A DNA stretch of 64,000 nt from contig NC_092673.1 in the NCBI RefSeq assembly GCF_964355755.1, positions 19,589,648 through 19,653,647 of the forward strand, read 5' to 3'. The stretch comes from Antedon mediterranea. Its lineage: Eukaryota; Animalia; Echinodermata. The position numbers and the translations under genes were made by a program. Of the stretch, positions 26,049 through 60,250 are shown piece by piece; the stretch's first letter is position 1, and every line of letters starts with the position of its first letter. A model generated the notes under the pieces. That model had not been told where the DNA came from. It saw nothing but the letters and a program-made list of their open reading frames with translations, and made no database searches.

Positions 26049-26256
26049 CATTATACTGAACTCATCTATATATAAATTTACGTAAATCGTGCGTTATTTC
26101 TAGAATGTTTACTCGATGGTATATAAAGTTGGTTAGAATCTCGGTACTGATTTTAACCACCTGATGTAACCCTGTTTACTAATTAAATTGAGTTAGATAA
26201 TAATAATAATAATACCACATTTATATAGCGCCCTTTTCATGAGTAATCATGTCCAT

Positions 26257-35966: not shown

Positions 35967-36486
35967 GCTAAAGCAAACTTTGAAATGGAAACAAATTTCC
36001 AGCAACTGAAATTGTCTTTCAGTGGACACTATAGAGGTGACAAGTATAAGTGGCTGAGGTTCTTCCTTTTCGATCACGTAACTGTAGAGGATATTACACA
36101 TTCTTTTAATAGTGATTTTTTAATAGACAAACTCGAGCAGGAAGGTATAATCTCACCACAGAATGTCAGCCTTCTGTTAGATATTGCTTTAGTAACACAA
36201 TTGACGGATGCCGTAGATCTGGTAATTCAGTATATGAATGTCAATGGTCAATACACTGATAAAGAAATTTCAAAATATCGAAAACAACTATTTGAGGTCT
36301 TAAGAGAAAGTGAACAAACTAATTTGAGCAGGGTTATTGCTCACTATGGTATGAAGTCAACTGAAATTAAAGATATTTGGGATGCAGTTTTGATGTTAGA
36401 GATTTGTGGCGATTTAGAAGATGACAATGACAAAATTAAACATTTTGAGAGTCTTCTTAAAATAAGCTCAAAGGAAGCACTAACTG
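35967..36486 (+). CDS. Gene C first coding exon: tandem DED-like module
   Basis: ORF 35961-36515; LIDKLEQEGIISPQNVSLLLDI and ISKYRKQLFEVL...IWDAVLMLE motifs; donor ACT G|GTAATA. Confidence 0.8.
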
Positions 36487-39400
36487 GTAATAATTTTTTC
36501 CTTTTGATTGTATAGTTTTAATTTTTTAGGGTAAAAAAAAGATAATAACATCAGAGGGTTAACTAAGGCAATGTAAAGATGTAAGCCCACCGTAAAGTAA
36601 TTTGGTAGGTCATTCAAACTGCTTGTGATTGATCAACTCACTTGCGTTGCGCCTACATTGTTGCGTTGTGTCCAAGTAGGAACCAAGCTTAAGCTATCTT
36701 TTGTACAGTAGATCAACTTTATATTGTGAATGAAAATATGGCGGTGCAGAGATTAAAGCTTCAAAACGCTTCCCTGCTCAGCATTGTTTGTCATCTATTG
36801 AAGTTGTCTTCCGTTTTGTGTGAAAAGTGTATCCCTTGTGGTCAGCAGCTTGATTATTGACCTAGGCATATGAAAATTGATTCACATGTTCCCATACAGC
36901 AATGAAACCAGTCTTTAAAATCTTATCGGGAATCGGGAAATAAATTTTTGAGTAATCCTGCTAACTAACAAACACACACAAACACACCCGATCTACCTCA
37001 TAACCTCTTGCCATTCTGGCAGAGGTAATAAGTATTAAAATAATTATGTAGAATATATACTGTACACAAATTTAAATTATAGTTTTTGTTATTACTTACC
37101 TAAAAAACCATTTTTTGTTGAAAAAAGATTACTAAACACTGCAAAATTCCAAAAATACAGCAGCCGCCATCAAAACCAAAACAATTCTGGCAATTTTGAC
37201 ACCCCAAACTTCTTCCCTGGGGTGAATAAAATATAGTTTAAAACCTCTGGTCATTTTGATACCTCATTACGCGCTAGAATCCCCTCCCCCAACCTCTACT
37301 GCTGGCCCCAATAAAGAAAAAACGTGAACAACTATTTTAAAAATGTAATTAGACTATAAACTAAACACATCTGTTTGATATATCCTGTTGAAATAAAAAA
37401 AAATTGCGGAAAATGGCCAATCTTGCATTGTACTGAAGGTGATCATGGAAATTGCTATAACAAATACCATAAAAGTAATATTTTTATTCTGCAGATCAAA
37501 TTGTGGAGGTAATTGTGGATTCTACAGGTGGAACGCTTCACCTTAAGGATGAAGACATAAAGTTAGAGATACATTCTGAAGCAATTGAAGGGGAGGAAGT
37601 GAAAGTAACGCTAGAAATTTTTTCTGAGGAAATAGACATTCCCATATCTCATCCTCGGGAATCAATAATATCACCTATAATTAAATGTGGACCAGAAGGT
37701 ACCACCTTCAACAAGCCTATTTCATTGTCATTTCCACACGATGCTGTAAATGAAGAGAATTGGGAATTCACTCTACTTGTTAAAGATCACATTCAAGATG
37801 AATGGAAACAAATAGCATTGACAAATGATAGAAAGGACGTTCATTTTACTTTAAACAAAGGTCTATGCTGTATAACATTAAATCATTTTAGTTGGTATGC
37901 ACTAAAGGGTCATGTCAGAAATGCCGTTCATGCTAAGAAAAGAATGTTGTCAGGAGTTTTTGGAAAGATGCTTGCAAACGATGAGTATCAACTTCAAACA
38001 AGACTTTGTAAGCCGTCGGATGTAAAGGTAATTAATATATAATTAATTGTTATTAAACTGTATTTGAATAATGTAGTTATAATTTGTATTATTTTACTTA
38101 CATTAACCTTTTAAAATATAGATATATTTTAATAAATGCATTTTGCTAGCTAGCCTTGTACTTTTTATTATGCCAAGTTAACTACTTTAGGTAATATTAC
38201 TATTGACCAAACATCTGATCCCAACCGAGAAGTAACAGTGATTTTTGGCTTTTCGCAGAATTATTATTTCTAGAAATGGTGACAAAGTGGATTTTCTGCT
38301 TCTTTTCACAAGCACTGAATTTGAGCTAACGTCTAACACATTGATTAAAATTGATGGCAGAAACATTCAAAATGTCATGTTGAATCATAAATTGAATTGA
38401 TTCCTGATCATTATAAAATATACAGTGAAAAAGTGAACACGATGATTACATCTGACTTCCCTCAGATAATAGAAAACGTGTAATAAATCGGGAGATCAAA
38501 CCTGGTTAAACAATTTATGCAGATTTGAAAAGGGTGTAGGAAACAAATATGTACACAAATAACATTAAGTTTATGTATTTCAGAAGATAAAAGAAGACCA
38601 CAGAGAAACCGGTGAGCAGCTTTTACGACCACCTGTAGATGTACTTGTTATGTATAAAAAGATGAAAATTACTGTAGCGGCAGTATCAGAACAAGAATGG
38701 AATGTTCAAGATGAAAATGTACAAGTAAGAATATTTGTTCTAATTTACATTACATGTATTATACAAATCATCACAATTTTTTAGGTTTGCATGGTAAAGA
38801 ATATGCATTAAACACGTTTTTGCAATAATACCACATAACTTGGGAATTCATAACTTGATCAATAAATAACAAAATCTCCATTGCTATCAGTATCAACCAT
38901 GGACCATGATGCTGACTTAACATAGAAAGTCTGTCTTTGATTAGTCTCTTTGAAGGATGCACACCATTCTTTTTGTGGATTTATCATTGAGAAAAAAAAG
39001 AAAATTAATTTATATATAAATAAATAGTAATATTAATCACCGCAGCAACCAATTTTTTATTTACAATGCCTTAGAGCTGTAACATTTTATGCATGACTTT
39101 TTTCCTAGACTGTCACTGCTGAATACTTATGGCGTGGAACACCATTGAAGACATTTCTTTTAAGAAGAAGCAATTCATTAGAAAATGTCTTAAAGGCAAC
39201 AGTATCACTGTCACAAGAGTCAAATCGTATTGATCCAGTGCCTGTGTATTGTAAGTATTTCAAATGCTAACATCAATTTAATTTAAGTAGCAAATCAAGT
39301 CTACATTTATGATGAAGTAAATAAAATGTGGTATTCAAAATGTTAATCAGACATTTTAACCATTAGAGTGAGGTGAATAACAAATAATAACAATGTTGAA

Positions 39401-42400
39401 TGTTGGCTTGTTTTTATCTGGTACTACAATATATTAATTGTTACGTTCCTATTAAACATCTTAATTCTTTTGAGATTCCACTTTTAATTCACAAATTTGG
39501 AATAGAGATTGAGTGTAAATGTTACATTGTGTTTTACATTTTGTAGGGCGTAACATTTTATTTTACTATAATTCAGGAAAGTGATTTGAAAAGCTTATTA
39601 ATTATCAATTGTGAATATTGGCGCATATAATGTAATAACATATGTTAAAATTCCAATTACCTACACAACATGTATATGACGTACGTCTGTATTTGATTAT
39701 TGAAAATCTTAGTTGGGGTGGTTTTCCTGATCTCACAGATTTCCTCTCTTCATCGTATATAAATTATTAATTTCCAGTAAAATATCACTTGGTGATCGTT
39801 TCACAATTGTACATTATTTTGTTTCTTTTTTCTATTGAAATAATTATGATTGTATATTTTGTTTGTATTTTTTGTTACAGGTGATGTTGAGACAACAAGG
39901 CCAAATCCAGGTATGTTATATAATTATATTATGATAATGCTTGAGATTAATTTCTTTTTCAATAATGTTTTATGAAGAACTTAACTCAAGCTTTAATTAT
40001 TTAATTTTTTATTTGTTTCATCACATGCCGGGACAGGTGTTCCTTCCAGTACAGATGTGTCTTCTGGTGCAGGTGTGTCTTCTGATACAGGTGTGTCTTC
40101 TGGTACAGGTGCATCAGACCAATGTATTAGGCAAGGTAATAATACTCTTCAGTTACAGTACTAATGTACTTACATTTAGAAAAATAAGTAAAAAAATAAG
40201 GGTTTTCTCAAATCTATCATGTTTACTGTATCTGTACGGTGACTTTTAGCTGATACAAGATTGATACGAGTTTGTACCTTGGTCTGATGGCTTAAAAATA
40301 TATAATCTGAATCATCATGTTTCATTTAAAATGGTTACTTCTTATAAATTGGTTGTAAACATACTAATATTCATGTTATTAGTGATAGGTTATGGTGACT
40401 AGAAGAATATAATTAATTTGTTGCAGAAACAAGAAATCCGTTGACAGAAAAGTTTAATGTGTTAAATGATGATCTCAGTGAAGTCTTTACGAAGAATAAG
40501 AGAAAGTCTTTGTCTATGTAGAGCATCTTGTGTATATGTTTGTCTTATATGTTCTAGTGCAGTATATGGAGAGCCATCTCGATAGTGCTTTGCACTCATG
40601 GCAATCCTCAGGGTGCTGCACCGCTGTGTTGTCATGTATGTTTGCCTGAAAATAAAATAAAATAAAAAATAAAATAAAGTTACTTTTTTTGAGATGTTGT
40701 CTATCTCAGCACGTTGAATTACAGGTCCTTGGCAATAAACATTACAAAGCAAAAGATTATTTTAATGACCTCTCTGATAAAGCAAAGATTAAACCTACTG
40801 ATGTCAGCCTTCTGCTGGAGATTGCAAGGCTATCCGAAATTCAGGAAGCTGAAGATGTTGTACAACAGTACATGAGAGACAACAATGTTCAAAATACTGA
40901 TCAACATAGATTGTCTCCGTATAGAAAGAGGTTGTGCAAGGCATTGACACAGTTTAACCCAAATGAATTAAATAGAATTAATGCTTTTTATGAGTTGGAA
41001 TTACCAACCATTTGGGATTTAACATTTGAGTTGGAGAGGAAAGGAAAATTAAGAGATGAATCACAAAGAAAAAAGTTTGCAGATCTTCTTGGAGCAATCC
41101 CAAAGGAAATATTATGTAAGTCAATTTATGTAATTTATAACCATACTATAAATCTAGGAAAAATAAATAATAAAAAATAAAATATATATAATTAAATTAA
41201 AGAAAGGAAAACAACAAGTTATACATTATTTTAATAATGCCTAATAACCAGTCAAAGATTTTTTAAATTATTTTCTATTTCTTTCCGTTTTAACTTTATT
41301 TTGACCCAGTCATTGTTCAGCACATTATACGATGAATCAATTGATCAAATGCAAAATCTGATAGTGATTCAGACATGTGAAGTCTCAAAAAAGCTATACC
41401 CCAGTGGTTAGAATTATACCACACTTTTCAAATCTCATAATAGTAATTACCATACCCTCTAATGATATATAATTTTGTTTACTAATCAATGAATGTTACA
41501 TTTATACCAAACAAAAATATTACTGCACATACTGACATGCTATGGTATTATAATATTACCAAAATATGTTTTTACAGATGGACAAGATGATTTCAGTTTT
41601 GCATCACTGCAGTCTGTCAACCGAAGCAGTCAACAAGGTATGATCTATTAAAGATATATTGTCACCCTGAAAAAAAATTTTTTTTTATAAATATTTTTGT
41701 TGAATATGCTATTTTATGTCACATAATCGTTATTCAGTTTGACCAACAATTGGATCAGATAAAAAAATAATGATTTACCTGAAAAATTGTAATTTAAAGC
41801 TATAAATAGTCAAATTGACTGGAAGTGAATGGGTTTTTTGTTGAATTTAAATGTTTATTTTTGTTTTGAGTGAAGTGAGTGTGAAAACATTACTTTTTTA
41901 AATTTTACTGAAGTGATAGGCCTAAACTTTATTAAAACTGCAAAATGGCCTATTCAAAGCATATTATATTAATCTTTAAAATACATACAAACATGTGTAT
42001 AAATATGAAATTGCAGTTGTACTGTGTCAATTATTTTGCCAATTACTAGATGAAAAGTATATTTAATTAACCCAGAATTAAACAAATGACCCACACCACA
42101 CCAATATTTTGGTTCCTTTAATTGTTCAGTCAGCAAAAATACTGAAATAATATATGTCAACACTGAACTGTTCTTGTACATTACATTTTCTATTGTAAAA
42201 TTTTATGCATCTTTCCTACAAATTGTTTTAGTCCTAAATTCATCAAACTGTTTAGTTAGATATTTTATTTATTTATTTATAAACATATTTTACATGGATA
42301 CAATATTTATTTACACATATAAATTACAAGATGAAAACTACAAACTGTGATAAAAATAAGAAAATAGAAACATTTTATCAAATCTTGGCATAATGTGTAT

Positions 42401-43570
42401 ACTTGGAAATCAGCGCCATCTAATTTTATTTTGACAAACACAAATTCACTGAATTTGTGCCATGTAATGGTGAAATTGTTTGCAATTCTGATGGTTTTAA
42501 ATTTTTAGGAAGTTTAACACAAGTGAAATGTTTAGTTATGTATACATTAACAAATAATACAATCTTATTTTAATCATTCATTATTTCAGGTTCACAGCAA
42601 CCACATAGGTAAGTGTTATCTTTATGAGTAATCTCACACTATAGTAGTGTAAATATGCAATTAGAGCACCAATGGTACAGAAACAATTTTATATTGTTAT
42701 TGTGACTTTAATATTAATTCTCAGTACATATATTCTGGATATATTCCACAATGACAATATAGCCTACTTAGATTAGAGTAAACTGTAACATTTGACATCC
42801 CCGAGGGAATGATATTTTTCTCAAGGAACTATATATTTTCCTGAAACAAGGCTGAGGGAAATATCATTTCCAGTGGGATGTCAAATGTTGTCATTCACCA
42901 ATATAAAATGTGATATTTGTTTTATGATATAGCCAAATATCAGTAGACCTGGCTGGGTATGCCAACTCATCTGCTGGGTCTGTCGGCTTTTCGGGTATGT
43001 CCCTATCAAGCCAGGTCAAAATCACATTTGGTATAGGCCTTTGTTATAAAGTTTAAAGACTAGATGTTCGACTTATTGATCGGAAGGAGTGTGCTCCTTC
43101 TAATAAACAGAGGTGTCCCCTGCACATAAAAGTTTATAATCCAACCAATCCCAAGTTGCTGCACATAAATTACTCTTTCAATATAATACTAGTCCTCAAA
43201 AGTAAACAGAATTTACAGTCAAAATAAACTCGATGTTTACAATCCACAAAACGGTAGCCATTTCAACCAATCACGTTCATGTATTTACATAAGTTATATA
43301 GAACATTATCCATAACTTGATCCATGATTAAAATTGTTTGATTGATTAATTATTATGCATCATCTTAATTCAATATTTATAAATAAAACAACAAGTTAAA
43401 GAAACAATTTGGGACATGCTAAGAAATGTTCATAAAATTAACATTTCATCAATATCTTTTGAATTTATTTATGTGATCTATTTACAGTGCTAAGCAAATA
43501 AACCAATTCTTAATGAATTTTTAATTTTGTGTATATATCTTTATTTAAAGGAGACAAAGGATACCGACAG
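35985..43570 (+). CDS. Gene C N-terminal part: tandem DED - ZU5 - UPA - linker - tandem DED - linker (UNC5/PIDD-like ZU5-UPA death-fold protein); disrupted by an insertion at 40501-40679
   Basis: Exons 35985(ATG)-36486, 37495-38027, 38584-38724, 39109-39250, 39881-39910, 40037-40135, 40427-41115, 41578-41637, 42590-42608, 43551-43570; all GT-AG and phase-compatible; no terminal exon found. Confidence 0.8.
37495..38027 (+). CDS. Gene C ZU5 domain exon and start of UPA
   Basis: VDSTGGTLHL..I.LEI...AI, ISPIIKCGPEGTTFNKPISLSFPH, LNHFSWY. Confidence 0.9.
40427..41115 (+). pseudogene. Second tandem-DED exon of gene C, interrupted by a 179-bp insertion
   Basis: Joining 40500 to 40680 gives VFTKNKLLFLRCCLSQHV, colinear with HYRGDKYKWLRFFLFDHV of the first DED exon; downstream ORF 40689-41180 with DVSLLLEIA, LSPYRKRL, IWDL..ELE. 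Confidence 0.8.
40501..40679 (+). mobile_element. 5'-truncated retroelement 3' end with (AAAAT)n tail, inserted in a coding exon
   Basis: Non-coding 179 bp ending AAAATAAAATAAAATAAAAAATAAAATAAAG; introduces TAG at 40519-40521. Confidence 0.75.
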
Positions 43571-43864
43571 GTAATTTAACCATTCTATTTTTAACTCCTG
43601 ACGCATTTTAAAGTTTTATTTCTCTTGAAAAACTAAATGCAATTTAGGATATGATACGATATTATTTATTTTCATTTTAACAACATGGTTCAAATGAAAT
43701 TTGGTTCGTTTGTAAGAAAAATAAACGATTACCTAATAAACAATTTTGTCATTTCCAAAAATATAAATTTATATGAATGTTGTATTTTTAACTAATTAAG
43801 CCAATTAAAATGATATTTAATAATAATTGCATGCATGCAATATACCAGATTTAAGGAATTGGAA

Positions 43865-44115
43865 CATTACATGACATAAATGTGGCACGGTAAACATCTT
43901 TTCTTGGCAAAATATATTGATATATGTCAGCCATGTCTGACGGCTCCTCGAAAATGCAATGATGGATCGCCATGTACGTCGGATTTGGAGCATTACATGA
44001 CATAAATGTGGCACGGTAAACATCTTTTCTTGGCAAAATATATTGATATATGTCAGCCATGTCTGACGGCTCCTCGAAAATGCAATGATGGATCGCCAAG
44101 TACGTCGGTCTTCAG
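43865..44115 (-). repeat. 126-bp tandem duplication, possibly including an RTE-LINE 3' fragment
   Basis: Two near-identical units at 43865 and 43991; reverse-strand EDRRTWRSII resembles RTE ORF C-termini. Confidence 0.7.
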
Positions 44116-44701
44116 TTAGATGATATATGCTATGTTGCCCAATTAATAGTTTTATTCTGGTCAACCCATGACTTTGGACGTCCTGACCTCCGAGCTTACT
44201 CGATTGTATAACATGCAAAAATATCTTTTCTATAGCCAACATATAATAGCGTTTTTCTTTAAACCTATTATTTTAATACCACAGAATACTGGAATTTATT
44301 TTCATCAATGTTTTTGGTTCTGATACAGATGGTTATGAAGTATATCATAGACTATGTAAGCAAACCATGGAATGATGGGACAAAGAAAAAGACGATTATA
44401 ATTTAGTCATTATTCAAACCATTAAATCACTTAGGAGGAGGACGACCATTTTTAGGGTTAATCTCTAGGATGCTCTCTAGGGTATTCACAATGTCGTGCA
44501 ACATACACTCGGCTGCGCCACATCTCCCCTATTGCATCCTGACTTGTGCATTATTTGTTTGAAAAACATAGTTATGTTTGGGATGGGGTATGGGACGTTA
44601 CTAACTAATTAAATCTAAATATTTAAAGCCCAAAATTGTCACAATATTATCAAGACCAGCATAATCAGTACCATAATTATGTTTTACTTTTCACATTTCA
44701 G

Positions 44702-47700
44702 TTGTGGAAAGAGTTCTTGCACATGGTCACAAGATACAACAGTGTCCTCTTGTTGTTAAACGCCCAAGCAAAGAGTGGAAGTTTAAAGATTGTTTGGATA
44801 AATTGGTAGAAGTACATGGATGTGATGAAAACATCACTAAAAATATTTTGCAAATGTATTTTGAATCAAATAGATCAGGTGGTAATGGTGAAGATGTTAA
44901 CGTCGAGTATGATGAAGATAGAAATGTGTGGACGGTCAAGTTTTCAAGTTCTGAAGGTAATTTAGGTCTTTATATGTTGTGAAATATTCATTCAGATAAA
45001 AAAAACTTTAAACAATTTAGCTTATCTTTAGGTGAAGGTAATATCAATAAAATACTACCATTTCTTTGCTTAAAATATATACAAATATTTATTTATGCAA
45101 TTAGTTTATACTGCCTTAAAATTATTTATCCCCACAATTCTAACATATAATATTTCAGGTTTTTTTTTTCTTTTTTTATTGATAGGCCTATAATATTTTT
45201 TTAAACACTTATATGATGCCTTCTTAATATATTAAATTCCATTATGATCCTGACCAAAATAATTATAAACTATTATTGATATTATAATTCCAACTGCAAC
45301 AACTAATTAACAAATTGCATACTGCATAATACTGTACAGTTGCATTTAAATTATATATTATATTGCTCTTCAGTTGCTGATAGAGTCTTGAAAAAGTCTC
45401 ATAAATTGAGAAGTGAGTATATTACAGTTGTGAGGCCAAAACCAAAAATGATTAGCAACAAGAAAGCAAAAATACAGGAAGATGAAGACGCTGTTCCATT
45501 GTTAGTGGAGAATGTGGATTCCTCAATATCTGAGGAGCATTTGAGACTGTATTTTGAGAGCAAGAAATCTTGTGGAGGACCAATTGCTTTAATGCAGAAG
45601 AATCTGAAAGTTACTGGTAGTTGGATCATACAATTTCAACAAAATGGAGGTACATTTTGCTTTCACATGTTTTTTCCGCTTTAATCATGAACTAATTTTT
45701 ATCATGAAAAATGTTTTCACAGAAAAAAATATGATATTTACTAATAAAAATAAAAAAATACCCTACTGAGTGTGACCAATCAAAGATTTTTAAGTTTGTA
45801 TCTATAAAATCATGCCTATTTTCCTTCCCAATATACCCTGACATTTTGTATGTTAGTGTCCAGGGAACTAGAAGCTCTGTTTTTCAAAATGACAGTAGCT
45901 CCAGTCATGGTGTAGCTAATGTCCTGTAGTGTAGTTTTTTTAAGGTACAGTATATAGGGTGTTCACAGGTTCTTACCATAGATTATAGTAACTCAAAAAT
46001 TATTATCTTTGACCGAAGGCCTCTGTGTTATGCAGCTGGCTCCGCCCCAGACCCTTTTGACGCCCAAACAACCAATCCCAGCGCCACCACTTTTGGGAAT
46101 AACAGATATGTTGATATTTTCACATTGACATGGCTTGATTGCTTGTTCATTACTATAAATTATAATGTAAAATACCCTATGTACTAATAACATTTCAAGA
46201 AAATCATTTTAACCTTGGGGTAATGCAAGGGCATAGCTTAAATGCTACAATTATTAAATAATGGGGATATGGAATAATAATTTAATATGGAATGTTGTTC
46301 TTTATTATGCAGTAAAATGTTTTCATTATGATAAAGCCTGTACGAAAAGTACTGTTTTGAAAGAGCCTATAAGTATAATCATATAATAATGTAATTATTA
46401 TAACATGTATTACAATTATGTATAATTTTAGTTGCTGAGGCAGTGGTTCAAAGGGAGAACCATGAGCTGTCTGGAAAAAGATTGAAAGTTAGACTTGGAA
46501 TGAAGCAAGTTAAAAGGCCACTCAGTAAACATAGTTTGCTGATTACTGATCTTCCAAAGAAATTAAATGAGGAAATGTTTGATCTCTATCTGGAAAAAGT
46601 GACTTCAATGAGTGAACCAACAGTCAAGTTGGGAAAAGATCCTACAAAAGCTATGGTGACTTTCACAGACCCTATCAATGGTAATACATTACAATATTCA
46701 CCTTGGTCAGATATATTTTAACATTTTTATAATAAGTGCCCAAATATGTTTTACATAAAGCATTGTAGCAATATAAAGATATTGTTTTCACTAATAGCAA
46801 TATTTTTTCAGACAAGAGCTGTCGCAATAGCAAATCCAAATGGCTAAAAGCAACTGTGACTGTTATGGTATCTGATACACTTTCCCTAATGTACTGTTTT
46901 GTTTATATTTTTGTTATTAACAGATATTGATAAGGTGATATTGAACATTAAAAATGAGAAACTGTCTGGTGTAGTAATCAATGCAAAGAAAGTGTTTGAT
47001 GTCGACACAATCGCTGTGAAGAACTTGGACAAGTCATGTACTGAGGAGATGCTGAAACTTTATTTTGAAAATCCTAAAAGTGGTGGAGGACTGATTCTAG
47101 ATACAAATCTGGAAAAGGGAACAATACAATTTGCAGACTACCAAGGTATGGACAATTTATGAAATAAAAACACAAGCAAACATTTGAGATTATCAAACAA
47201 TTATCTCCTTCAGAGGGCATTAAAACTTGAGATTGTACATATACAAACAAATATTGATATAATTAAAAATCCATATTGTAAAACCTAAGACTTAAAAGTC
47301 AGGTGTGGGCAAAACAATTGTATTGATCATGCATTCCAATTATTATCGATTTATAGTTTCCCCTAAAATGTTTTATAATTTTTGGGACTTTATTTGTGTT
47401 GCACAAACTTGTTGAAAATAAATACTTTCTTATCAGTGGGGGATAGTTCAAATTGTGACACAGTAAAATGTTTATTCTTTTGTACACAAATGTTGTAATA
47501 GATGCATTTTTAAAAAACTATGAAAAATAAACGGTGTAGTAAAAAATGTTATCACATGACTAATATTGGTAATATAATTTTAATGTTACGTTTTGATGTT
47601 TTTATTCAACTTCTTCAGGTTTATTTTGGCCCTATAGCAAAAATGATCCACCGTATACCCACCATTTTTTTTCACTTTCTGGGAGTCATCAGATATGTTA

Positions 47701-50700
47701 TTACATTAGATTAAACTACAGAAGAAAAAGTCTGTCTGATTTTTATACCACAATTTTTATATAATAAATTTAATTAAAATTTTGTATTTGACCATTTTAA
47801 GGGAAATTCCTATTTTTTTGTCATGATTTCAGTTACACGTTTGATTAATGTACAATTAATCAAATATTCATTCTCAATTCTGAGGACGATCAAAGCATAT
47901 TGATCGAAACGTCGAGAAACTCAACAGTTCTTTTCAGAACGAATACATGTGGTCTACCGCAAACTTTATATCAACATAATCAGATATCATATTTAAAATT
48001 CATGTATTAAATTTATGAATAATTTATAGTTTTTGTAAACATAAAGTATATGCAGTGTGTTAAATTTCAATAAATGTTAAAAATTAAGATCCAGCTAGAT
48101 TGTAAGACTTATCTTGTGAACCAAATTCAAAACATATTTGAACAATGCACCCTTTTCATAATTCATGAAAATCTGCTTTAAAAAATACTGTTACTTCTAA
48201 GGTTAAAAAATTACATAAAATCGTATGGTTTTATTGCTGTGACTTTTCATTAGCAACTAAAATTCCATGAAAAAACTATTCTTTTATTTATGATTTCAGT
48301 TGTAAAGTCAGTCTGCAAAAAGAAACACACACTTCAAAAAAAAGATCTCGAAATTCGCCTATGCTATGATGAAATTGGTGAAGTCGTGTCAGAGGTCTCT
48401 CAATGGACACCAGATCCAGTTTGTGTCAAGGTTGATCCTTACCTTTTGACCTTTGCATGTAAGAATCAAGAGTTCATGAATGAACTATATGCTGCTGGAA
48501 TACTGGTACAGTTTGAAGAAGGTTCTCCTAATGTGAACTTAAGTGTTGATTCTGAATTTGACCTTAAAAGTATTCATGATTGGGACGACTATGCTACAAG
48601 CACTTTCAAACGCCTCTGTGACCAATTTGATGCAAAGTGGTTGGACATTGGTGATGAATGCTTTGAAGATTTCCAGCCATACATTGCAAAGGCAAAGATG
48701 GAAGGTGTGGAATTGCAACTAGATGACTCGTCACCATCCCTTATAATTTTAGGAGTAAGGCATATTGTTGATAACACATTCCAACAGCTTGCACAACAAC
48801 TCAAGATCATGAATGACGAAATCAAAAGAAAGAAAGACATAGTAGTGAAATCTGAAGAGTGTAAAGCCTTAAAAATGAAAAAAATTCATTTGCTTAATTT
48901 TGAAGAAACTTCTAAGAGTAAATTTGGAGTAGATTTTGTTGTCGATGATAATAGCAGTACAATAATATTTAAAGGACTTCCTGGTGACATAAATGATGCG
49001 ACTTTGTGTCTTTACAAAGATCTAGAGAATATTGCCGAAACCTCTTTCCTGTGTGAATCTGCTGAGATTCGTAAATTTCTGATGAAATTCTATGATGAAG
49101 TCATACGTGTTCAAAGGGAAAACCATCTCCACATTGAATATGTTGTAGAGGAAAACCGTGTGAAGGTGTATTCTGCTTCTCTTGACCATGCCAAGGCTGC
49201 AAGATCATCTATTGGGAAATTGATAAAATGCCAGAAATATACACTTTCAAATGATGAAATTAAAGTAATGAAATCAGCTGAAGGCAAATTATTATTTGAG
49301 GAATTTTACAAAAATAAATCAACCGTCGGAATTTCTCAATCAGAAGATGAAACCTGCATTATGATTACAGGATTTGACAGTTTTGTCGATCAAGTTATCA
49401 GCAAGCTGGATAAATTCCTACGAGCCAACCTGATATTAGAAAAAAAAAGAACTGTGGACAAAGGAGTAGTTATGTTACTAAAAAATCATCATTCACAAGA
49501 AATTTCTGCTATAGAAAAGGCTTGGGAAGAATTCTTTGTGGAGTTAATAATACCGAATTCAGACCTTGGTTATATCATAATCAAAGGTAATCCTAGTGGA
49601 ATCGATAAAGCTATTAGAGAAATAATAGTCCTTGAAAGCAAGGTGCAAACAGATGAACATGTGATATCACAACCAGGAATGGCAAGTTTCTTTAAAGAAG
49701 AGAAAGGAATAAAAAAAATGATGGGTGTGGAAAATGACTTCAAATGTATTGTAGAGGTCGATGGCAAGTTCACAAGCAGTGAATCAATGCAAGTACTGTT
49801 ACGACACAGGTTGCAAAGAGGAGTTGAGTTGATCATATGCAAAGCAGATATGACTAAAATGAATGTTGATGCTATTGTCAATGCTGCAAATAAACAACTT
49901 TTACATAGCGGCGGATTAGCTAAAGCTATTGTTGATGCAGGTATATTAATTTCTTTTGTATACAGAATTTTTATGTTCAATTTAAAATTCAAATTCAATT
50001 TATTTTCAATGCTACCAAAGTAGTGATAATGCTACCAAAGTAGTGTTATATGCCTTTTTTCTCTTCAAAAAAAATTATAATCAACTAGATGGTGCATTTG
50101 GAAATTATTATGATTGATTTCAATTTTATTTCTCACACTTGCATCCACTGCTTTTTTATTTCTAATAAAATTCCATATTAGGAGGAAAAGAAATACAGAT
50201 AGAAAGTGACAAGATAATAGCAAGTAGAAGTAAGCTTCTGTCAGGAGAGGTTGTTTTAACCAATGCTGGGAATCTCCCATGCAAAAAGATTATTCACACG
50301 GTTGGACCAACATAAAAAAAACAGCAAAAGAAAATTATGCTCATGAAGTCAGTGACAGGTGCCTATGAAGAAGCAGCGAAATATAGATTCACTTCAATTG
50401 CAATGCCAGCAATCAGTTCTGGGATATATGGCTACCCCTTAGCACCATGTACACAGGCGATTTTAGAAGCAACTAAAGATTATTTTAAAGATAATCCTAG
50501 ATCAACACTGCAGCAAGTGTATTTCGTAAGTATTGATATCCCAGTTTGCGAAGCTTTTGAATCATCTATGAAAAGTGTCTTTATGGGGGATGAAGAAGAA
50601 TTATGTATGGCTGAAGATGATGATTTTGTTGGCTTAGAAGCAGAAGCATCTGCCACAGAAAGTAGTTCAAATTTTGGAATGAAGATAGATAATGATGTAG

Positions 50701-53700
50701 TAACAACAAAAGAGGGCTTTGATATTATGCTTATGAAAGGAAGAATTGAAGATTCTAAGGTATGAATTTTTATTTCTATTCTATACTACTGAATATAAAG
50801 TTTGTTCAAATTGTTTCCATATGTGTTTTTGCTAATTATTCACTACAGTGCTTACTGAAGATGCAATACCATTTATAATTTCTCTAGGTGGATGTCATTG
50901 TAAATTCAACCTCACACGATCTTAATCTGAACAGTGGTAATGTTTCTAAAGCTCTTCTTCAAGCTGCAGGTCCTCAACTTCAACAAGAGTGCAGTGCTAT
51001 AAAAGCTACTGAAGGGAATATTCCAGTAAATGGATTTGTTGAAACTGGTCCTGCTGCTTTGAAATGCCAGAAAGTATTTCACATATCACCACAACATTAT
51101 CAGGGAGCAGCATCAATGCAGGTCTGCTATTAGCTTTTATACCATTTATCATAATGCTTGCTTCTTTTTATATACAATTTTGTTTGTAGGCGAATTACCA
51201 GTTTTATTTTCAGCGAATCTATAATTAGACAAGACCATACAAATTATGATTTGCTCTGGCATTAGACCGTGGACAATTATATAATTTTGATATTGTTTTT
51301 TTTATAGAATATAACAATTCTTCTTAAAACGATATTGTCATCAGCATCTAGCATGAGATCAATTGCCATTCCGGCACTAGGGACTGGAAACCTGAAGTAT
51401 CCAGCTCATCAAGTGTCAAATGTCATGTATGAGGAAGCTATAGAATTTAGTGCAAATCATCCACGAAGCAATCTGAAGGAAATACATTTTGTAGTTTACT
51501 ACAAAGATACCAACACTATTTCGGTTTGTTTGAATGTTTTGATCGATAGTCATATACGCTGCTGTAAAGTCTCTATACATAACTATTTTATATGAAAATT
51601 AATTAATTAATTAGCTTTTTCAACAACTAACCTACTAACATTAATTCTCTATTGAATATACAAATAATGATATCAATCATATACTTACAGTTTGTAATTT
51701 TTATGTTATTTCTACTTTACTTTATTCTTTGTTTTTATATATTGTGTTGTCTTATACCTCTTCTAATTTAGGCATTTGACTCCGAGATAAAGAATTTAAA
51801 ATATCTAGCAAATGAAGTAGAAAAAACAACCAACCAAAGAGATCTTGGAAAAAGAAGTAGGCATACTTTGGTTTTAAAACTAATACATAATTTGCAATTC
51901 ATTTGGTCATATTTATTACAGTACTTGACATTTGTCAAAATTAATAAAATCACATGCTGCTATATGTATTTATAGTGCATTATCTAGATTATAATCAATG
52001 TTGTATTTTTATTCCATGAACAACCAAGTAAAATTCTATAACTATAGTTTTCTAAAAAAATGCCTATAGTGGAAGCAGTTAATTTGAGTCAACCTACTGC
52101 AGCTGACCACATTACAAGTTCATCACCACACAAACACTTTAGACGGCTGAGTAGACGTCGGGCAGAGATGGAAATAGGATGTGTAACTGTTACAGTTGAA
52201 CAAGGCGATATAACAACTTGTGATGCTGATGCCATTGTCAATTTAACCTCGAATACATTTAATTTGTGTATGGGTAAGGTGTTTATATACAAATCATAAT
52301 TATAAACGTACATGTTAGTAAACTATAGGGATAACACATATAGGCCTACAGTTCACATTGCAATCTACTACAATTAAAGATTGTGTCTTCTACTGTAGTA
52401 GCTAGTTTACTTTTCATAAAGAGAAAAATATATTAAATGATTTTTTTACACTATCAGAAATATTTGATGTGATAATTGTTTTAATGCTTTTGCTACTCTA
52501 TTATAATATTTAACATTTTTCATCATTGTTTTTTCATTTACTTATAGGAGCTGTTTCAAATGCAATTCTTAAAGCAGGTGGAACATCCATTCAAACAGAA
52601 TGCACAAACAACATGAAATGTAAGATTTGTTCATTCTAATTTCAAATATTTTTGTAACAACTTTTCATTATGGGGATTATAATATATGTAGGCCTCAACC
52701 AAGTCTTTGAATCGCTACTTTTTAATATAAAAAAATCTTGATTTTTTTCAGCCCCTTCGTTGACTTTCCCAGATGAAATATGGACAGGCTCAGGTAGACT
52801 AAATTGCAGTGCAATTTGCCATTTACCTATTTCCAACGATATCAATCAGCAAAAAACAATGTTAGTCAAAATAATGGCAACAGCAAACGTCCGAAAGTAT
52901 AATAAAATAGCATTTCCAGCTATTGGTACAGGTAAGGTAGAATATGGAAGTTAAAGAGGCTTGGAGATTTTCAGTATTATCTTTATTAAAAAGAAATAAC
53001 ATGAGGATGAAACAATGTGATATAATAGCAGTTTATGTTGATTTGTCCATCTTGGTTTTGGTTGACATTATAATTTCATTTAAATTGTGATGAGGGTCTA
53101 TCAATGTGAGCTTGCATTTAATAATATATTGATTCTTGCATTCAATTAGAGCACGGTCTTACTGAAAATCAACTTTCAGTTGAGTTAAGTATGCGTGATT
53201 AAATAAAGCTTATTATTATTATTGTTATTACACTATTAATTTCGCTTTTGTGATTGTTTTTTTTATTTTGTAGGAAATTCTAAAAAATCACCTAAAGAAG
53301 CAGCTACATTACTTTTTGACTGCATCCTAAAATTTTCAAAGAAAGAAAATCCAACCAGTTTAAGAAAGATCATGATCATTGTGTTTGAAATGCCTATGAC
53401 TTTAGAATTCATTTCTACTATGGAAGATTTACATCAACCACAGCTTCAATCCAAAGGCTTTTTTCAGAGAAGCTATGGTAAATATAAGTTTTCCACAAAT
53501 ATCAAAATTAATCAAAGTGGTGCGGTAATTGCAAAACGAAGGAGTCCTTGTGTGGGCCAGAGGGTTGTCAAGGGCCACGTACTGGTGGTTACGGCCAGGC
53601 CCGTATCCAGGGGGGGGGGGGGGGTGCGTTGGGTGCAGACGCATCCCCCCCCCCCCACCCAAGTCCCAAAATGTCCACTATTTCCTCGGTTGGTATTTTT

Positions 53701-56700
53701 TCTTGTCTTGTTTAACTAAAGACAATATTATATATATATATACAAAATTTACATCATCAATGGTATACAAACAAAAATATGTTAATATAAAATAAAAAAA
53801 TACCGGTAATTAAATTACGGAATCTGAACTGACTACAAACTCGATGTAAAACATGCGCAGTCGATCATGTGACGACAAGCAATTCAATAGCTTAGCGCTT
53901 CATGTACGCGGGACGCGGTAAAGTGTTTGCTGGAAATACAGACAACTTAACCGGCGGTAAAGACGTGTCTGGAAATACAGACACTATCAAATACGGCGCC
54001 TAAACAAGGGAAGGAAGGCCAACTCAGACAGCGTCGTACAACGCTGTCTGAGTTGGCCTTAAACATCATGAAAGCGTTAAGTTCTGGACGTCCATCATTC
54101 AACTAGCCCAAGCCACAACAAAGAAAAAATCAGTCTTTAGAACGTCAAATAACGCAAATTTTGTCCGGGGCCTTCGGCCCCTGCACCATCTGACCCCCAG
54201 CCATTGTTGCTCGCTCTTCGCTCGCACCCCCCCCCCATTATAAATGCTGCAAACGGGCCTGACGGCCCTGATGAAAATGCTAATTGATGACTTGGCAAGA
54301 TAAATATTGCTATATTGCTGTTAATTCTTATCTCCATGATGCATATCATCACCTTGATTCAAAAAGAAATTATGTACGGTCTATATTTTTCGATTTCTCC
54401 AGTGCTTTTAATAGGCCTACTATTTTACCACATGTTTTAATTGATAGATTATTAAGTTTTAATGTCTCACCTCAGCTCGCCAAAGTTATATATAGTTTTT
54501 TGATTAATAGACCGCAGATGGTTAAGTGCAATGGTATCCTATCCAACAAAGAATCTACCAGTGTTGGAGCTCCTCAAGGATGTGTTATCTCTCCAATTTT
54601 GTTCTCTTTTTATTCTAGTAGTTTTAATATTTTAAGCAAAGATTGCAATATTGTAAAATACGCTGACGATACTGTAATTAGTGGTTTTCTTTGCGATAGT
54701 AAGCATAATGTAAATGAATTTGTTAATGAAGTTGGAAGATTTGTTAATTGGTGTGAAGATATGAACTTAATACTTAATATTACTAAAACCAAAGAGATGA
54801 TAATAGATTTTCGTAAAACTGCAGTTGAACATAATGTAATAACTATTAAAGAAACCGAGGTTGAAAGAGTAACCCAATACAAATACTTAGGTACTATAAT
54901 TGACAACAAATTAAAATGGGAGTCAAACTCTCTCATGATTTCCAAGAAGGCATCTCAAAGGCTCTACTTTCTCAGAAAACTCAAGCAAATTAGTTGATAA
55001 CACTATTTTAATTCTATTTTATCAAAGTATTATTCAAAGTATTTTATCTTTTAGCATTGGATGTTTTTATGGTAACTTTACTGAAAATGATAAGAAAAAT
55101 ATTGAGAGACCACGTAAAATTGCACAACGTATTATTAAAGCTGATCTTACGCCTTGTTCACTTATCTATGAAAAGAGTATTCTAAAAAAAGTAAACAATA
55201 TTATGAAAGACCCCACTCATCCGTTACATTACTGTTATAACTTAAATAGATCAGGCATTAGGCTACGACCTCCAAGAGCAAATCTTTGTAGAACTAGAAA
55301 ATCCTTTGTTGTAAATAGCATTCATATTTTTAATTTTAATGTAAGACGTTAATGCAATTTTTAATAGTTTTACATTTTTAACAGTATTTTTAACTTTTTA
55401 TCTTGTATTTTTAATCTGTTTAATACTGCACGTTTTTAAATTGTTGCAATATTGTTGTTTTAATGTACCAAGCAAAGTGAATTTCCATTTTTATGGACAA
55501 ATAAAATTTCTTGAATCTTGAATCTTGAATCTATAATATTATACTGTTTATCACACAAGATAAAAGAATAATACTTTTGTCTTTTTACCATTTAAGATTA
55601 TATGAAGGCAAAGGTACGCCTACTAGGATCAGAAGAAACAACTGACGAAGATGTTCAAACTAGCCCACAGCTTTCCTTAAGAATTCTGTCACTAGATGAG
55701 GAAGGAATAAATGGAGCAAAGAGTAGAATACAATCAATAATAGCCGGGGAAATGACAGAAGAGGTATTTTTTTTAACTGAATAATTAATTTACTTTACAG
55801 AGCATGATTCATGATATTATAACTTTGCTGCATGCATACATTCTTCTCTTTTTCCGGGTCCAAAAAATACATTTTTTTACCTTCATCGTTCATGAGTTTC
55901 CACAATCATCATATTGATTATCACGGAACTAGTTGGTGTGGTGGCAGTATTCACAGCTGGTTTTGGGTTTACTGTAGTTCTTATTTTATTTAAATTGTTA
56001 TGTTATTTTTTGTGTTATTGATCTTTTTATGCTTTTTTTTACAAGGGCGTGACTCGAGTTGTCATGTCATGCCCTAATTTAGATGCACTATTTAAACTTC
56101 TGGCTAGGAAATGGAACATAGTATGATTTTGTTGTGATGGTCTTCACATTCCTCATCATATCACTCCTGTTATCATGGTCTTTTATTGGCTCCCCATCAA
56201 ACTTTAAGATCATTGTTTTAACATTTAAAGCTTCTTTTTTCCTGTCCATCATATATCGCCCAACCTATTCCTCGATACACTCCATAACATCGCCATTGCT
56301 TCTCTGACAAATCATTGCTAATCTGTTAAAATGTTCCCTGTTTCCCGACTTACGGTGGATGCTCATTTTCTGTTGTTGCATTCTTGGAATGAATTCACAC
56401 GTTTTGTAAAGCTATCACTAAAAACTCGTTTAATTAGCAAATGTCATGATACAATGCGCCTTTGATCATCTTTTTGGAATTGGCGCTATGTAAATGTTTG
56501 ATTGTCGTCGATATTATTATTAACATCATTATTATATTAATTCATTTAGTGGGTAGTTTATTGCAACAATGTTTTTTTTGTTCAAGGTTTTTCATAAAGA
56601 TGCTTTTAGCAAATTTACCCCACAGCAGATTGCAAAGTTAAAGAAGATTGCTGGTGATTATGAGGTATGTTCAATTGAAAACCATATTTGTGTTAGTAAA

Positions 56701-59700
56701 TTAAGTAGTATTTTCCCAAATGTAGCGAATATTCAGCCACCTAATTTCATTTCAGTCAGAAAACTGAATTGCGAAAGAAAGTTTACAGAAAACAACGGCA
56801 ATAAAACTGACTTTTATCTATATTATAAGTGAGATAGTTTACGTTTGTTCGTTGAAGTGAGATAGTAATAACTCTATAGTTCACTATGTCGGTCGGTCTG
56901 TCAGTCCGGTATCACTATGCGTTTTATCGCTTTCTGACCTTATCTTGATATCAGTTTAATCTAGCTAAGTAAATTTTTCACAGTATATTCCTTATGGCCA
57001 GGAATCGATGTGGTTATGTTTTCATGGTGCGCAATAAAAAATTACGTGGTCTACGCACGATTTAACGAAATCATGTTTGTAATCATATCTTCACAACCAT
57101 GAATCACAATTAAATAAAATTTGATACTCATAAATTTCAGGGCATAAATCATCATATGGCAATACAATTACGTGCGTAGCGCATGTAACGCATGCGTACG
57201 CGCGCTTACAATTTTCAAAATTTATTTTCGATGAAATAAGAGTACGTTTCAGGCAATTTTAAGCGTTTACAAAATTGCCATGAGTGCGCAGATTTTTGCT
57301 CGCAGATTTTTGCTCGCGCACTGCGTGTTAAATGTTATTGCGCTCTCTTTTTGCCCGATTTCTGTTTTCTTGACTTACTTTTCAACTCGAGCACGTCAAA
57401 AGTGACAGGCTACGCACGTGTAAATTAAAAAAATATAACTGTTTTTAAACATTTCAACATTTTTAAACGCGACTGCAGCCATCTATATGGCCTTGTTTTT
57501 TACTGCATGCCGCTATACTCGGAATTATGTGGTATCAAAATGCAACAACATCGGCAAGGGTTCGAGGCCGACTCGCTCCTAGTTCTGGTGGTGGAACAAG
57601 TCTTCTCGGATAAGGACTATAAACCGTAGGTCCAGTATACACAGTTATAACCTGTGTGTACTTTAAAGAACCCAGTTCATTATTCGAAAAAGAGTAGGGG
57701 GTTACCCCGGTGAACTGGTTCACACAATAGCCTCTGTATCAGGGGGATTACCACCTATCTGATAGGACAGTGATTAATTTACTATTGGTAATCCTTGGCC
57801 ACAGTGCCTAAAGACATAAAATAAAATAAAAAAATAAATAAAATAAACTATACATATGGGGTCAGACTTGCCCCAAGTGCGTAGTTATTTTCTTTTTTAT
57901 GTTCGTCCACCAGTCGGCGTTTCAATTTGGTCTGTAAACTATAGACTTGAAAAATGCTTATATAAATTGATTTGCAAACCCGCAAACATCGGATAAGAAT
58001 GGCCTCTGGAGTAATGATTGATCGGAACTGTTCTGGGAAGGTTTTAAACTAAATTTGAAACCTGCTCTGGGCTGGTGTAATTGCTAGTATGTTATTAAAA
58101 AAATTATTTTATTTATAACTTTAGGTTGCTATTAGTACTCGAAAAATCAAGTCAAACATCATTGAATTGCAAGGCAGACGTGTTAATGTAATGAAAGCTC
58201 AAAAACTCATATATGAATTGATTGTTGAAATACAAGAAAAGCAGTTAATTTTAAAAGATGTGAAGTGGTTCTACACAGGTGTTAATAATGAAATGGTGGA
58301 ATTTGATGGCGATATTACAGTTTTGCTTGAAAAAGCCTTCCAAAAGAAGAAGAATGAAGTAACATATACTACACGTAATAATCACAAATTTAAGGTGAAC
58401 CTAAAAAAGATGCCAATGGAAGAAACTGATTTAACGTTGAATACAACCAACATGGTTATTCGTAATGAATGTAAGGGTACTGTTTAAACAATTTTTAAAG
58501 AAACTAGTATTTATTTATTCTTTTATTTCTATCATCTCATAAAATTATAATAAAAGAAGGAAAAAACCTGAATTGTTATCTAACCCAAATTGTATAAATG
58601 TGAAGTCTCACAATAAAGTGAGTCAAGTTTTTACTATTGTTCAAATTTACTCATAATTTACCTATAATCTACCTATAATCTAAAATGCTCTTGCCGAGAT
58701 AAAACCCTCAAATGAGACTTAGTTTAAAGGCATGATGAAATTGTAGTTTATCCAACTCGTAATTTGTGAGTTTGTTGCTGTTTAATGCGTATGAAATAAA
58801 AAAATTATAAATATAATTTAAGCTACGATGAATCTTCCTTCTGATTGGAGTCCAATGACGGAAAAGCAAAAGTCGGAAATATGTGATCTTCAGCCAATTA
58901 GTAACGAATACCACCAAGTTGAGATTCAGTTTACTGCTGCATTGGGCAGCAAGGTTCAACTAAAGGCTATTGTCAAGGTTTGCATGAACATTTGTTAATG
59001 TACATTTTCCTCCTGTTTACCACACTTTCAAAAGTAGTGGCTTCTAAAATTGTTGTTCCAATAAGAGTATTCTGTTAGTTACTGAACTGTTTAACTATTG
59101 AATGGCTGATAGGTTCAGATAAAATCTCAACATTGTAGTTGTACAACTTTAGCATTAATTTGAGTTAATTCAACTACCGTCAAACTGATTTGTCTGCTAC
59201 CATTTCTTTCTCTATAGATAAGTCGCATTCAGAATATCGAGTTATGGAAACAATATGCTATTAAAAAGGAAGCTTTTAAAAAGACTATGGAAGGTCAAGG
59301 ATTTGAACGAACGCTGTACCATGGGACTGATGATGGAACCATTACCAAAATTAACAATACAGGATTTAATAGAAGTTATGCAGGAAAAAATGGTATTTTC
59401 ACGTTTTGATTTATTAGGTTATCAATGACCTATCTTAAGCAATAAAGCCAGCCATTTAAAATACTTCCATTGCAATGCACAACTTGTATTTTATCAAAAT
59501 GATTATAATAATTATTAGAGAAATATATTAATTATCCTAATTATTATACTTATGGGAAGTCCATCCAACCAGTCATGTGATGAAGTGTTAGACTTTTAAT
59601 TGTGTTATATACATGAGTATCCCTTTTTTTAGTGCAACCTTCGCCACATGGGTGGATTGTTGCAATTACAGGTTGTTTGTACAAAAATTATAATAATAAC

Positions 59701-60250
59701 CAGTTTTTTTCATTATCAGTTATGACACAACGATCAATTAAAAACTACAGAAATAAGCAGATACATTAACTTCTGACCTTTATAACTATAATATAGTATT
59801 TGTTTTGTATTTGTTTACGAATAATACACATTACAATAACACTTTATTTCAATCACTTCTGCCCACTGTTACTTGATTTTGCTATTTTCATTCATCATAG
59901 CATTGTTACACATTTTTAAAAATAATGACCACTGTTATTATTTTAGCCATATTTAAAATCAAATGTTTTTGGATATTTCAGTGACTGCTTTTGGAAAAGG
60001 AACTTACTTTGCTACCTCTGCTGCTTATTCTGCTCAAGAAAAGTATTCTCAACCAAATGCAAATGGAGAAAAACACATTTTAATGTGTAGTGTTCTTGTG
60101 GGTAAATGTACAAAAGGAACACCCGACATGTTGGCACCACCAGCTGGCTTTGACAGTGTTTGTGATGATCCTGCCAATCCTAAAATTATCGTCATATTTC
60201 ATGATGTTCAAGCTTATCCGAGTTATCTTATTACCTTTAAGTTGACCTAA
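44702..60250 (+). CDS. PARP14: Gene C C-terminal part: PARP14-like mono-ADP-ribosyltransferase (RRMs, KH region, 3 macrodomains, WWE, ART); premature TAA at 50313-50315
   Basis: Exons 44702-44956, 45374-45649, 46432-46680, 46924-47145, 48300-49940, 50182-50759, 50888-51121, 51308-51523, 51772-51856, 52070-52273, 52548-52619, 52752-52931, 53274-53477, 55597-55763, 56587-56664, 58125-58476, 58823-58977, 59218-59392, 59982-60250. Motifs LYFE...SGGG (RRM), DAIVNAAN..L.HSGGLAKAI, SIAIPALGTG, VKWFY..LEKAF (WWE), LYHGT, GFNRSYAGKN, FGKGTYFA, QAYPSYLITF. Confidence 0.92.
47871..47940 (+). ncRNA. Penelope-type minimal hammerhead-ribozyme-like motif (PLE LTR fragment) in a PARP14 intron
   Basis: CTGAGGA core, stem II CGATCAA-AGCATA-TTGATC(G), GAAAC-GTC; stem I imperfect. 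Confidence 0.55.
53596..54261. mobile_element. Non-autonomous DNA transposon with 5-bp TSD (hAT5-like)
   Basis: TIR CAGGCCCGT / ACGGGCCTG, TSD ACGGC on both sides, G/C-run subterminal repeats. Confidence 0.75.
54300..55531 (+). mobile_element. 5'-truncated Rex1/Babar-like non-LTR retrotransposon (RT C-terminal half, frameshift near 54990, 3' UTR, (TCTTGAA)n tail)
   Basis: ORF 54284-54997: FFDFSSAFN, GAPQGCVISP.LF, KYADDT, LNITKTKEMIIDFRK, YKYLG.IID..L.W, QRLYFLRKL; continues in another frame LFYQSIIQSIL.F. Confidence 0.9.
56150..56535 (+). mobile_element. Degenerate L2-type LINE 3' remnant
   Basis: HITPV....WLPI, FKI..LTFKA remnants; tail GCGCCTTTGA...GGCGCTATGTAAAT..(ATT)n. Confidence 0.6.
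56870..57497 (+). mobile_element. HINE-like element, second copy
   Basis: High identity to 17210-17814. Confidence 0.8.
57545..57850 (+). mobile_element. Deu-core SINE, second copy
   Basis: B-box-like GGTTCGAGGCC, same core as 14016-14307, A-rich tail. Confidence 0.75.

Follow-up and report, generated by a model that had tools for sequence, protein, structure and literature searches.

A probable chimeric gene of Antedon mediterranea that joins a tandem-DED/ZU5/UPA cassette to a PARP14 paralog, almost certainly disabled in the copy at hand

Within a 64,000-nucleotide stretch of the genome of the crinoid Antedon mediterranea (the window), a chain of 30 exons separated by GT-AG introns extends on the forward strand over 35985-60250, from an ATG at 35985 to a TAA stop at 60248-60250, and keeps its reading frame throughout. 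The chain encodes, in order, a tandem DED (aa 1-167), ZU5, UPA, a linker, a second tandem DED and a second linker, followed by RRMs, a KH array, three macrodomains, a further KH, WWE, and an ADP-ribosyltransferase (ART) domain. We propose, with a probability of about 0.7, that this is a chimeric immune gene produced by phase-1 exon shuffling, and that two stops, likely of recent date, have disabled the copy in the window. A preliminary description of the locus, made from the sequence alone, had reported an in-frame fusion with a repaired coding sequence of 7668 nt. The exons identified here add up to 7671 nt including the stop codon, in agreement with that length, and the domain calls and the DED-to-PARP14 junction of that description are supported as well. 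The frame is indeed kept along the chain, but only after two repairs, at TAG 40519-40521 and TAA 50313-50315.

The window DNA is AT-rich and eukaryotic, and protein searches with two of the exons returned Antedon mediterranea proteins at identities of up to 100%. Two RefSeq proteins, XP_071947633.1 (P0008, 513 aa) and XP_071947630.1 (P0010, 1039 aa), match the exon chain letter for letter; over ~1900 aa, two Antedon paralogs share 66-69% identity with the PARP14 part.

Domains and the DED-to-PARP14 junction

An AlphaFold2 model of DED pair 1, built from a 57-row alignment with a mean confidence score (pLDDT) of 91.9, predicts two packed six-helix DED folds. The best match of this model among 48161 chains is the tandem DED of caspase-8 (Z 14.1; root-mean-square deviation 2.9; 151 aligned residues). 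Foldseek likewise assigned caspase-8 a probability of 1.00 and placed only tandem DEDs in its top rows, none of them at E 0.001. By sequence, the Pfam DED match on pair 1 (E 0.0065) is below the cut-off, and a search of the Protein Data Bank with the DED profile gave nothing significant (1 match, E 0.55). DED pair 2 is 35% identical to pair 1 and 46-53% identical to the pairs of P0004, P0006, and P0007, and by this homology is classed as a putative tandem DED.

The ZU5-UPA and death fold order is present, with UPA placed by alignment to UNC5B; a Pfam UPA match was obtained in the paralog P0006 only (E 6.5e-05). ZU5 ends in the motif HFSW (aa 298-301), whose Phe aligns with the UNC5B residue that we take to be Leu677, a number obtained by adding an offset of 540 to the position in the chain and checked against two cysteines named in PMC3210808. 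In that paper, the Leu677 position is equated with Phe296 at the CARD8 cleavage site, and the nucleophile of self-cleavage is given as Ser, Thr, or Cys. HF followed by one of these three residues is present in 8/8 of the proteins P0001-P0008. Together with the alignment of HFSW to the self-cleavage site, this conservation predicts that an intact protein would cut itself.

The PARP14-type order of RRMs and KH array, three macrodomains, WWE, and ART is present; an uninterrupted frame from macrodomain 1 to ART is absent, as TAA 50313-50315 lies between. The ART domain matches the structures of PARP15 and PARP14 at E 6e-22 and 6e-21, respectively. Its motifs HGT, GTYFA, and PKII align with those of the paralogs and PARP15, and are presumably the H-Y-I triad of mono-ADP-ribosyltransferases (His, Tyr, and Leu/Ile in place of Glu). 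The motifs of both macrodomain 1 and ART are kept, and human PARP14 is described as both transferase and hydrolase (PMC10499325).

The two parts of the gene are connected by three exons of 60, 19, and 20 nt, which the preliminary description had placed correctly. With a splice-site matrix trained on 22 longer exons of the same gene, their donors rank 1, 2, and 3 of the 168 GT dinucleotides in 41116-44701 and their acceptors 8, 2, and 1 of the 138 AG dinucleotides. P0010 is an exact substring of the chain that starts within the second DED exon and crosses all three small exons into PARP14. Exons of such small size are rarely predicted without RNA support. Both DED exons end in phase 1, and the exon at 44702 enters PARP14 in the same phase, as had been proposed, aligning from residue 43 of P0012 and residue 406 of P0011. 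The N-termini of the PARP14 paralogs match nothing in the window upstream of 44677; the upstream RRM exons of PARP14 have been lost, and the DED/ZU5 cassette stands in their place. The earlier statement that no ATG exon was found for PARP14 is slightly overstated: from an ATG at 41493 the frame stays open to the donor at 41637, and P0010 itself starts at a Met in the second DED exon.

Reads were compared over 35300-41150, including those of X1, a run from a single sample guessed to be RNA. X1 contigs cover the first DED exon (35967-36486), and X1 record 3 is spliced over three ZU5-UPA exons, with two introns removed at the joins 38025/38582 and 38724/39109. X1 record 6 (558 letters) matches 40691-41115 without a single difference, departs from the genome at the 41115 donor, and continues for 80 letters more, indicating that the second DED exon is spliced onward. 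Its 53 letters before 40691 are compatible with a transcript that either lacks or bears the insert described below, whose A-rich tail was skipped in the comparison. We regard the DED-to-PARP14 junction as very probably real and infer splicing across the linker exons.

Two stops and the state of the copy

The exon that begins at 40427 runs into TAG 40519-40521 within a 173-bp insert. Omission of 40507-40679 puts the two halves of the exon in register with the paralog P0118. The insert has AAAG at both ends, an (AAAAT)n tail, and five AATAAA signals, and in DNA runs the bins over it are 100-1000x deeper than the flanks, a summed depth rather than a copy number. In all three DNA runs of one sample, cover is missing on either side of the insert, a pattern that a single long insert-free record lost to filtering would produce; this is no more than a hint and carries no weight here. 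It is likely the 3' end of a 5'-truncated non-LTR retroelement. When the insert is left out, the chain encodes 2557 aa with one internal stop, TAA 50313-50315, in the middle of macrodomain 1. A Tyr occupies this position in 5/5 aligned paralogs, and the surrounding loop is 2-4 residues shorter than theirs. P0008 ends at the TAG and P0010 at the TAA; contrary to the preliminary description, the DED/ZU5 part therefore does have a terminal exon in this allele. A cryptic GT-AG intron, 40518-40693, would remove the insert and restore the frame, but its donor (-0.8) and acceptor (2.2) score below all 22 training sites (donors 4.3-11.1, acceptors 4.7-13.4). Given the two stops and the very weak splice sites of this intron, the allele likely cannot make the full protein. 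Thus, the copy in the window is almost certainly disabled, and the single intact polypeptide of 2555 aa envisaged earlier is not encoded by it.

Several measures bear on the age of these lesions. Of all substitutions, 5.1% would introduce a stop, which corresponds to ~3.9 stops per 1% neutral divergence over the gene; 1 is present, and divergence from the sister paralog is ~30% at the protein level. Of 1233 conserved columns common to two Anneissia PARP14s, the model keeps 814 and the intact paralogs 858 and 842, and the columns kept are spread evenly before (412/627) and after (402/606) the TAA. A single stop where ~3.9 are expected per 1% divergence, together with the conserved columns kept, indicates that the loss of constraint is recent or specific to this allele. 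Either the gene died recently, or this copy is a null allele of one that is still alive, and the lesions are likely of recent origin.

A number of observations weigh against the proposal of a shuffled gene recently disabled. The model keeps slightly fewer conserved columns than the intact paralogs, and its branch is longer than its sister's (0.25 vs 0.17). The open frames point to selection on each half rather than on the fusion. A profile of the DED pair retrieved 242 proteins, and among the best 150 the only PARP14-like protein is P0010 itself; a PARP14 part occurs in 0 of the other 149, so that there is no second example, and 0/6 other PARP14 relatives begin with a DED. No read or contig crossing 41637-44702 was seen in the reads, compared over the interval given above. 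RefSeq describes the locus as separate genes, and the RNA basis of its junctions is not visible. Finally, X1 is one sample whose RNA nature is only guessed.

Among the alternatives, the one that survives best is a sub-case of the shuffling explanation, namely that the fusion is alive in the species and the window represents a null allele, with other haplotypes free of both lesions making the 2557-aa protein. Only two lesions have accumulated in 7.7 kb, the catalytic and cleavage motifs are intact, the locus appears transcribed and spliced in a second sample (X1), and DNA runs reveal allelic differences across the locus. Against this stand two independent lesions on one haplotype, the failure to see any insert-free or Tyr-bearing copy in the data examined (with reads compared over 35300-41150), and the lack of a full-length fusion protein among 7 matches of 957-2730 aa or 7 matches of 311-2000 aa. 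We judge a living fusion possible, at odds well short of even.

It is unlikely that the locus now functions as two shorter genes, one for a 513-aa DED-DED-ZU5-UPA protein, a FLIP-like adaptor or decoy ending in the poly(A) signals of the insert, and the other for a 1039-aa half-DED/RRM/KH protein without enzyme domains. These products equal the two RefSeq models, the five AATAAA signals follow the first stop, and P0002, which is 99% identical to the 5' part, likewise ends after UPA. The second product, however, would begin in the middle of a DED and end in the middle of a macrodomain, and the nearly equal conservation on either side of the TAA does not fit long use of a truncated protein.

That two neighboring genes were never joined, and that their frames match by chance, is more improbable still. 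No junction-spanning read was seen in the interval compared, read-through past 41115 meets a stop after ~20 codons with an AATAAA close by, and ATG 41493 could start PARP14. This reading is countered by P0010, which joins both parts, by X1 record 6, in which 41115 serves as a splice site instead of being read through, by the splice-site ranks of the small exons, and by the absence of any trace of PARP14's own 5' exons. Least probable of all is the original model, in which the whole fusion is made by means of the cryptic intron, with the TAA either erroneous or bypassed by read-through, since this intron, for all its GT-AG ends and restored frame, has two sites scoring below the whole training set, its acceptor is not used by X1 record 6 (which matches from 40691, three bases inside the intron), and the TAA comes with a shortened loop rather than a one-base slip.

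Under the explanation that we favor, phase-1 exon shuffling likely joined a tandem-DED/ZU5/UPA/tandem-DED cassette to a PARP14 paralog. If intact, the product would be a single protein of 2557 aa, predicted to cut itself at HF/S (aa 299/300), as do PIDD1, NLRP1, and CARD8, leaving DED-DED-ZU5 bound to UPA-DED-DED-PARP14. The PARP14 part may bind RNA of foreign origin or ADP-ribosylated targets and form clusters, or a pathogen may attack it; UPA-tandem-DED, once freed or clustered, would then nucleate DED filaments that recruit a DED-bearing caspase, while ART would write and macrodomain 1 erase mono-ADP-ribose. Self-cleavage, sensing, and caspase recruitment are predictions, as is the decoy role suggested in the preliminary description, and the step from sensing through DED filament to caspase is modeled on the biology of caspase-8 and PIDD1/NLRP1.

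The crinoid tandem-DED module and the surroundings of the gene

Crinoids have a promiscuous tandem-DED module, and the fusion is one of its products. Sixty relatives of the DED pair were scanned with Pfam (58 of the 62 with at least 500 aa, and 2 shorter ones). Partner domains included NACHT in 22, Roc or COR in 8, NHL in 3, and kinase in 2, with one each of RIG-I helicase, Rel, caspase, TIR, USP, and URGCP GTPase; Macro or PARP was found in 0 of the 60. All 10 relatives whose organism was looked up are crinoid (7 Antedon, 3 Anneissia). Among P0018-P0162, relatives of 35985-36485 and 40695-41114 in the window, the tandem DED is joined to NACHT-LRR, Roc-COR, a RIG-I helicase in which it replaces the CARDs (P0113), Rel (P0122), and caspase (P0047), as well as to TIR, kinases, TRIM-NHL, USP, and URGCP GTPase. 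The caspase P0047 carries the same DED module and is itself among the DED-pair matches. This grafting system may be of more interest than the single gene.

The same four-part cassette lies behind Roc-COR in P0004 (XP_071965522.1), at 45% identity over aa 46-653; there it forms the C-terminus of a ROCO protein and, unlike the window gene, has Cys as the nucleophile. In P0002 (XP_071949184.1), the near-identical counterpart of the DED-ZU5-UPA part, the donor that follows 39250 is read through, and P0002 is either a recent duplicate or an allele; a G>T change at 39251 was observed in the DNA run X4. For the second DED exon, a search for a short peptide that spans it was positive in 0/12 candidates. 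The PARP14 part is a mosaic, its RRMs being slightly nearer to P0011 (76 vs 73%) and its macrodomains nearer to P0012 (72 vs 62%), which suggests exchange between paralogs.

The features of the gene are collected in Table 1. A strong in-frame acceptor lies at 35967, 18 nt 5' of ATG 35985, and an X1 contig terminates exactly there; an extra exon probably lies upstream. A longer gene that also takes in the ankyrin exons upstream was considered and rejected: a phase-0 join to 35967 is formally possible and has no support, and the RefSeq start is 35985. These exons belong to an ankyrin-repeat gene at 18016-22603 (+) with six one-repeat phase-0 exons (18876, 19156, 19408, 19720, 20637, and 21297), one of which has a GC donor; its last exon (22520) has a TAA just 5' of a strong GTAAGT. 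The 3' end of a paralogous gene occupies 564-2709 (+), with small linker exons 5' of a terminal tandem-DED exon (~2209-2706) that is 74% identical to the C-terminus of the ZU5-UPA protein P0001. Broken non-LTR retroelement fragments are present at 22135-22599 (-) and, within a PARP14 intron, at 54284-55349 (+), the latter with a reverse-transcriptase match (E 7e-18). Further repeats comprise a 21-bp tandem array at 25700-26050, a 126-bp two-copy repeat at 43855-44108 in the last linker intron, and, by eye, two copies of one interspersed repeat at 17500-17800 and 57150-57500. An Rfam search gave 0 matches.

Table 1. Features of the chimeric gene, with positions in the window
Feature	Position	Strand	Basis
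Exon with ATG 35985; tandem DED pair 1 (aa 1-167); phase-1 donor	35967..36486	+	AlphaFold2 model, caspase-8 match, X1 contig cover
ZU5 exon, HFSW motif at aa 298-301	37495..38027	+	Pfam ZU5 E 2e-17; UNC5B 3g5b E 6.5e-13
Two UPA exons, 38584-38724 and 39109-39250	38584..39250	+	UNC5B alignment over aa 178-413
Two low-complexity linker exons, 39881-39910 and 40037-40135 (the second with an 18-bp tandem repeat)	39881..40135	+	Used by RefSeq P0008
Exon of putative tandem DED pair 2 (phase 1-1), split by the insert	40427..41115	+	Similarity to pair 1 and to pairs of P0004/P0006/P0007
173-bp insert	40507..40679	+	Ends from register with paralog P0118
Three linker exons, 41578-41637, 42590-42608, and 43551-43570; phases 1-1, 1-2, 2-1	41578..43570	+	Splice-site ranks; RefSeq P0010
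PARP14 RRM exons 44702-44956, 45374-45649, 46432-46680, and 46924-47145	44702..47145	+	Pfam RRM_PARP14
KH array and start of macrodomain 1	48300..49940	+	Pfam KH_PARP14 (weak), Macro; 72-73% to P0011/P0012
Premature TAA in macrodomain 1, exon 50182-50759	50313..50315	+	Paralog alignment; end of RefSeq P0010
Rest of macrodomain 1, macrodomains 2 and 3; 8 exons	50182..53477	+	Pfam Macro; paralog alignment
Last KH and WWE exons 55597-55763, 56587-56664, and 58125-58476	55597..58476	+	Pfam WWE E 1.7e-07
ART exons 58823-58977, 59218-59392, and 59982-60250; stop 60248-60250	58823..60250	+	Pfam PARP E 6e-12

Comparison with known systems

The gene shares the RRM-KH-3xMacro-WWE-ART order and the macrodomain-1 and ART motifs with PARP14 (ARTD8) and the crinoid paralogs XP_071948866.1 and XP_071948864.1, and differs from them in carrying the DED/ZU5 cassette in place of the upstream RRM exons and a stop in macrodomain 1. 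Like PIDD1, NLRP1, CARD8, and UNC5B, it has ZU5-UPA followed by a death fold, with HFS at the position of the self-cleavage site. Unlike these proteins, its death fold is a tandem DED rather than a death domain or CARD, LRR and NACHT are absent, and a single ZU5 is preceded by an extra DED pair and followed by an enzyme body. PIDD1 consists of LRR, two ZU5, and a C-terminal death domain, an architecture from which the crinoid gene departs in having one ZU5, no LRR, and a tandem DED. The predicted fold of pair 1 resembles the tandem DEDs of caspase-8, cFLIP, and vFLIP; identity to these is 15-18%, and the crinoid protein has no caspase domain.

Fusions of death folds to PARP14 have precedents, and the earlier remark that no protein of this architecture had been described was too strong. 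In Kaur et al. 2021 (PMC8195603), ~10 Crassostrea virginica proteins join DED-TRADD-N to KH, RRM, Macro, and ART; corals have HEPN-TRADD-N-PARP14 fusions; ZU5-UPA fusions are described separately; and a protein of the sponge Amphimedon, XP_019855315.1, is given as Death+DED+TRADD-N+3xUPA+RRM+KH+Macro+PARP (source data 1 for Figure 4). The crinoid gene resembles these in having its death-fold module N-terminal to RRM, KH, Macro, and ART, and the sponge protein also contains UPA, in three copies. The listed fusions all carry TRADD-N, by construction of that list, whereas the crinoid gene lacks it: neither P0008 nor P0010 has a TRADD-N match at E 0.5 with Pfam (as distinct from the authors' own profile), and linkers of ~33-43 low-complexity residues leave no room for one. 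It differs further in its two tandem-DED pairs, ZU5 with HFS, three macrodomains, and WWE; no ZU5 occurs among the PARP- or Macro-bearing rows listed in the consulted source data. The exact architecture was not found in the literature searched, a scope outside which twelve further supplements of PMC8195603 may hold closer cases, and a term search of the accessible text of a PARP14 review (PMC13224862) gave no mention of invertebrate, echinoderm, fusion, or oyster. Related connections have been described, including DED-bearing RIG-I-like receptors in lophotrochozoans (PMC8998645) and the ADP-ribosylation of PIDD1 by PARP4 (PMC13127586), which links the same two pathways in trans.

Death-fold/PARP14 fusions, apparently independent, are thus present in a sponge, corals, oysters, and now a crinoid. 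Their recurrence suggests a functional coupling of macro-PARP signaling with DED-driven cell death in animals, and a link that may also hold in species where the parts are separate. If an intact allele exists, it would make it possible to test within a single protein whether the ZU5-UPA switch can be fired when RNA or ADP-ribose is sensed or when PARP14 is attacked. A bolder version of our proposal, slightly less probable than a living fusion as such and put forward tentatively, is that one of the alleles segregating in Antedon is intact and encodes a sensor of 2557 aa that cuts itself, with a whole PARP14 as bait or detector and UPA-tandem-DED as output. This would be a fourth independent origin of a death-fold/PARP14 fusion, and the first such fusion to have an autoproteolytic ZU5 and to lack TRADD-N; its source would be a crinoid system in which one tandem-DED exon is grafted onto many immune sensors. 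In its present state the copy is broken, and fusions of this general type are already published, so that the locus is mainly a clear case of the birth and death of a shuffled immune gene. In comparison with the fusions in the consulted part of the published record, which already join death folds to PARP14, what sets the crinoid gene apart is the absence of TRADD-N and a ZU5 with the PIDD-type HFS motif.

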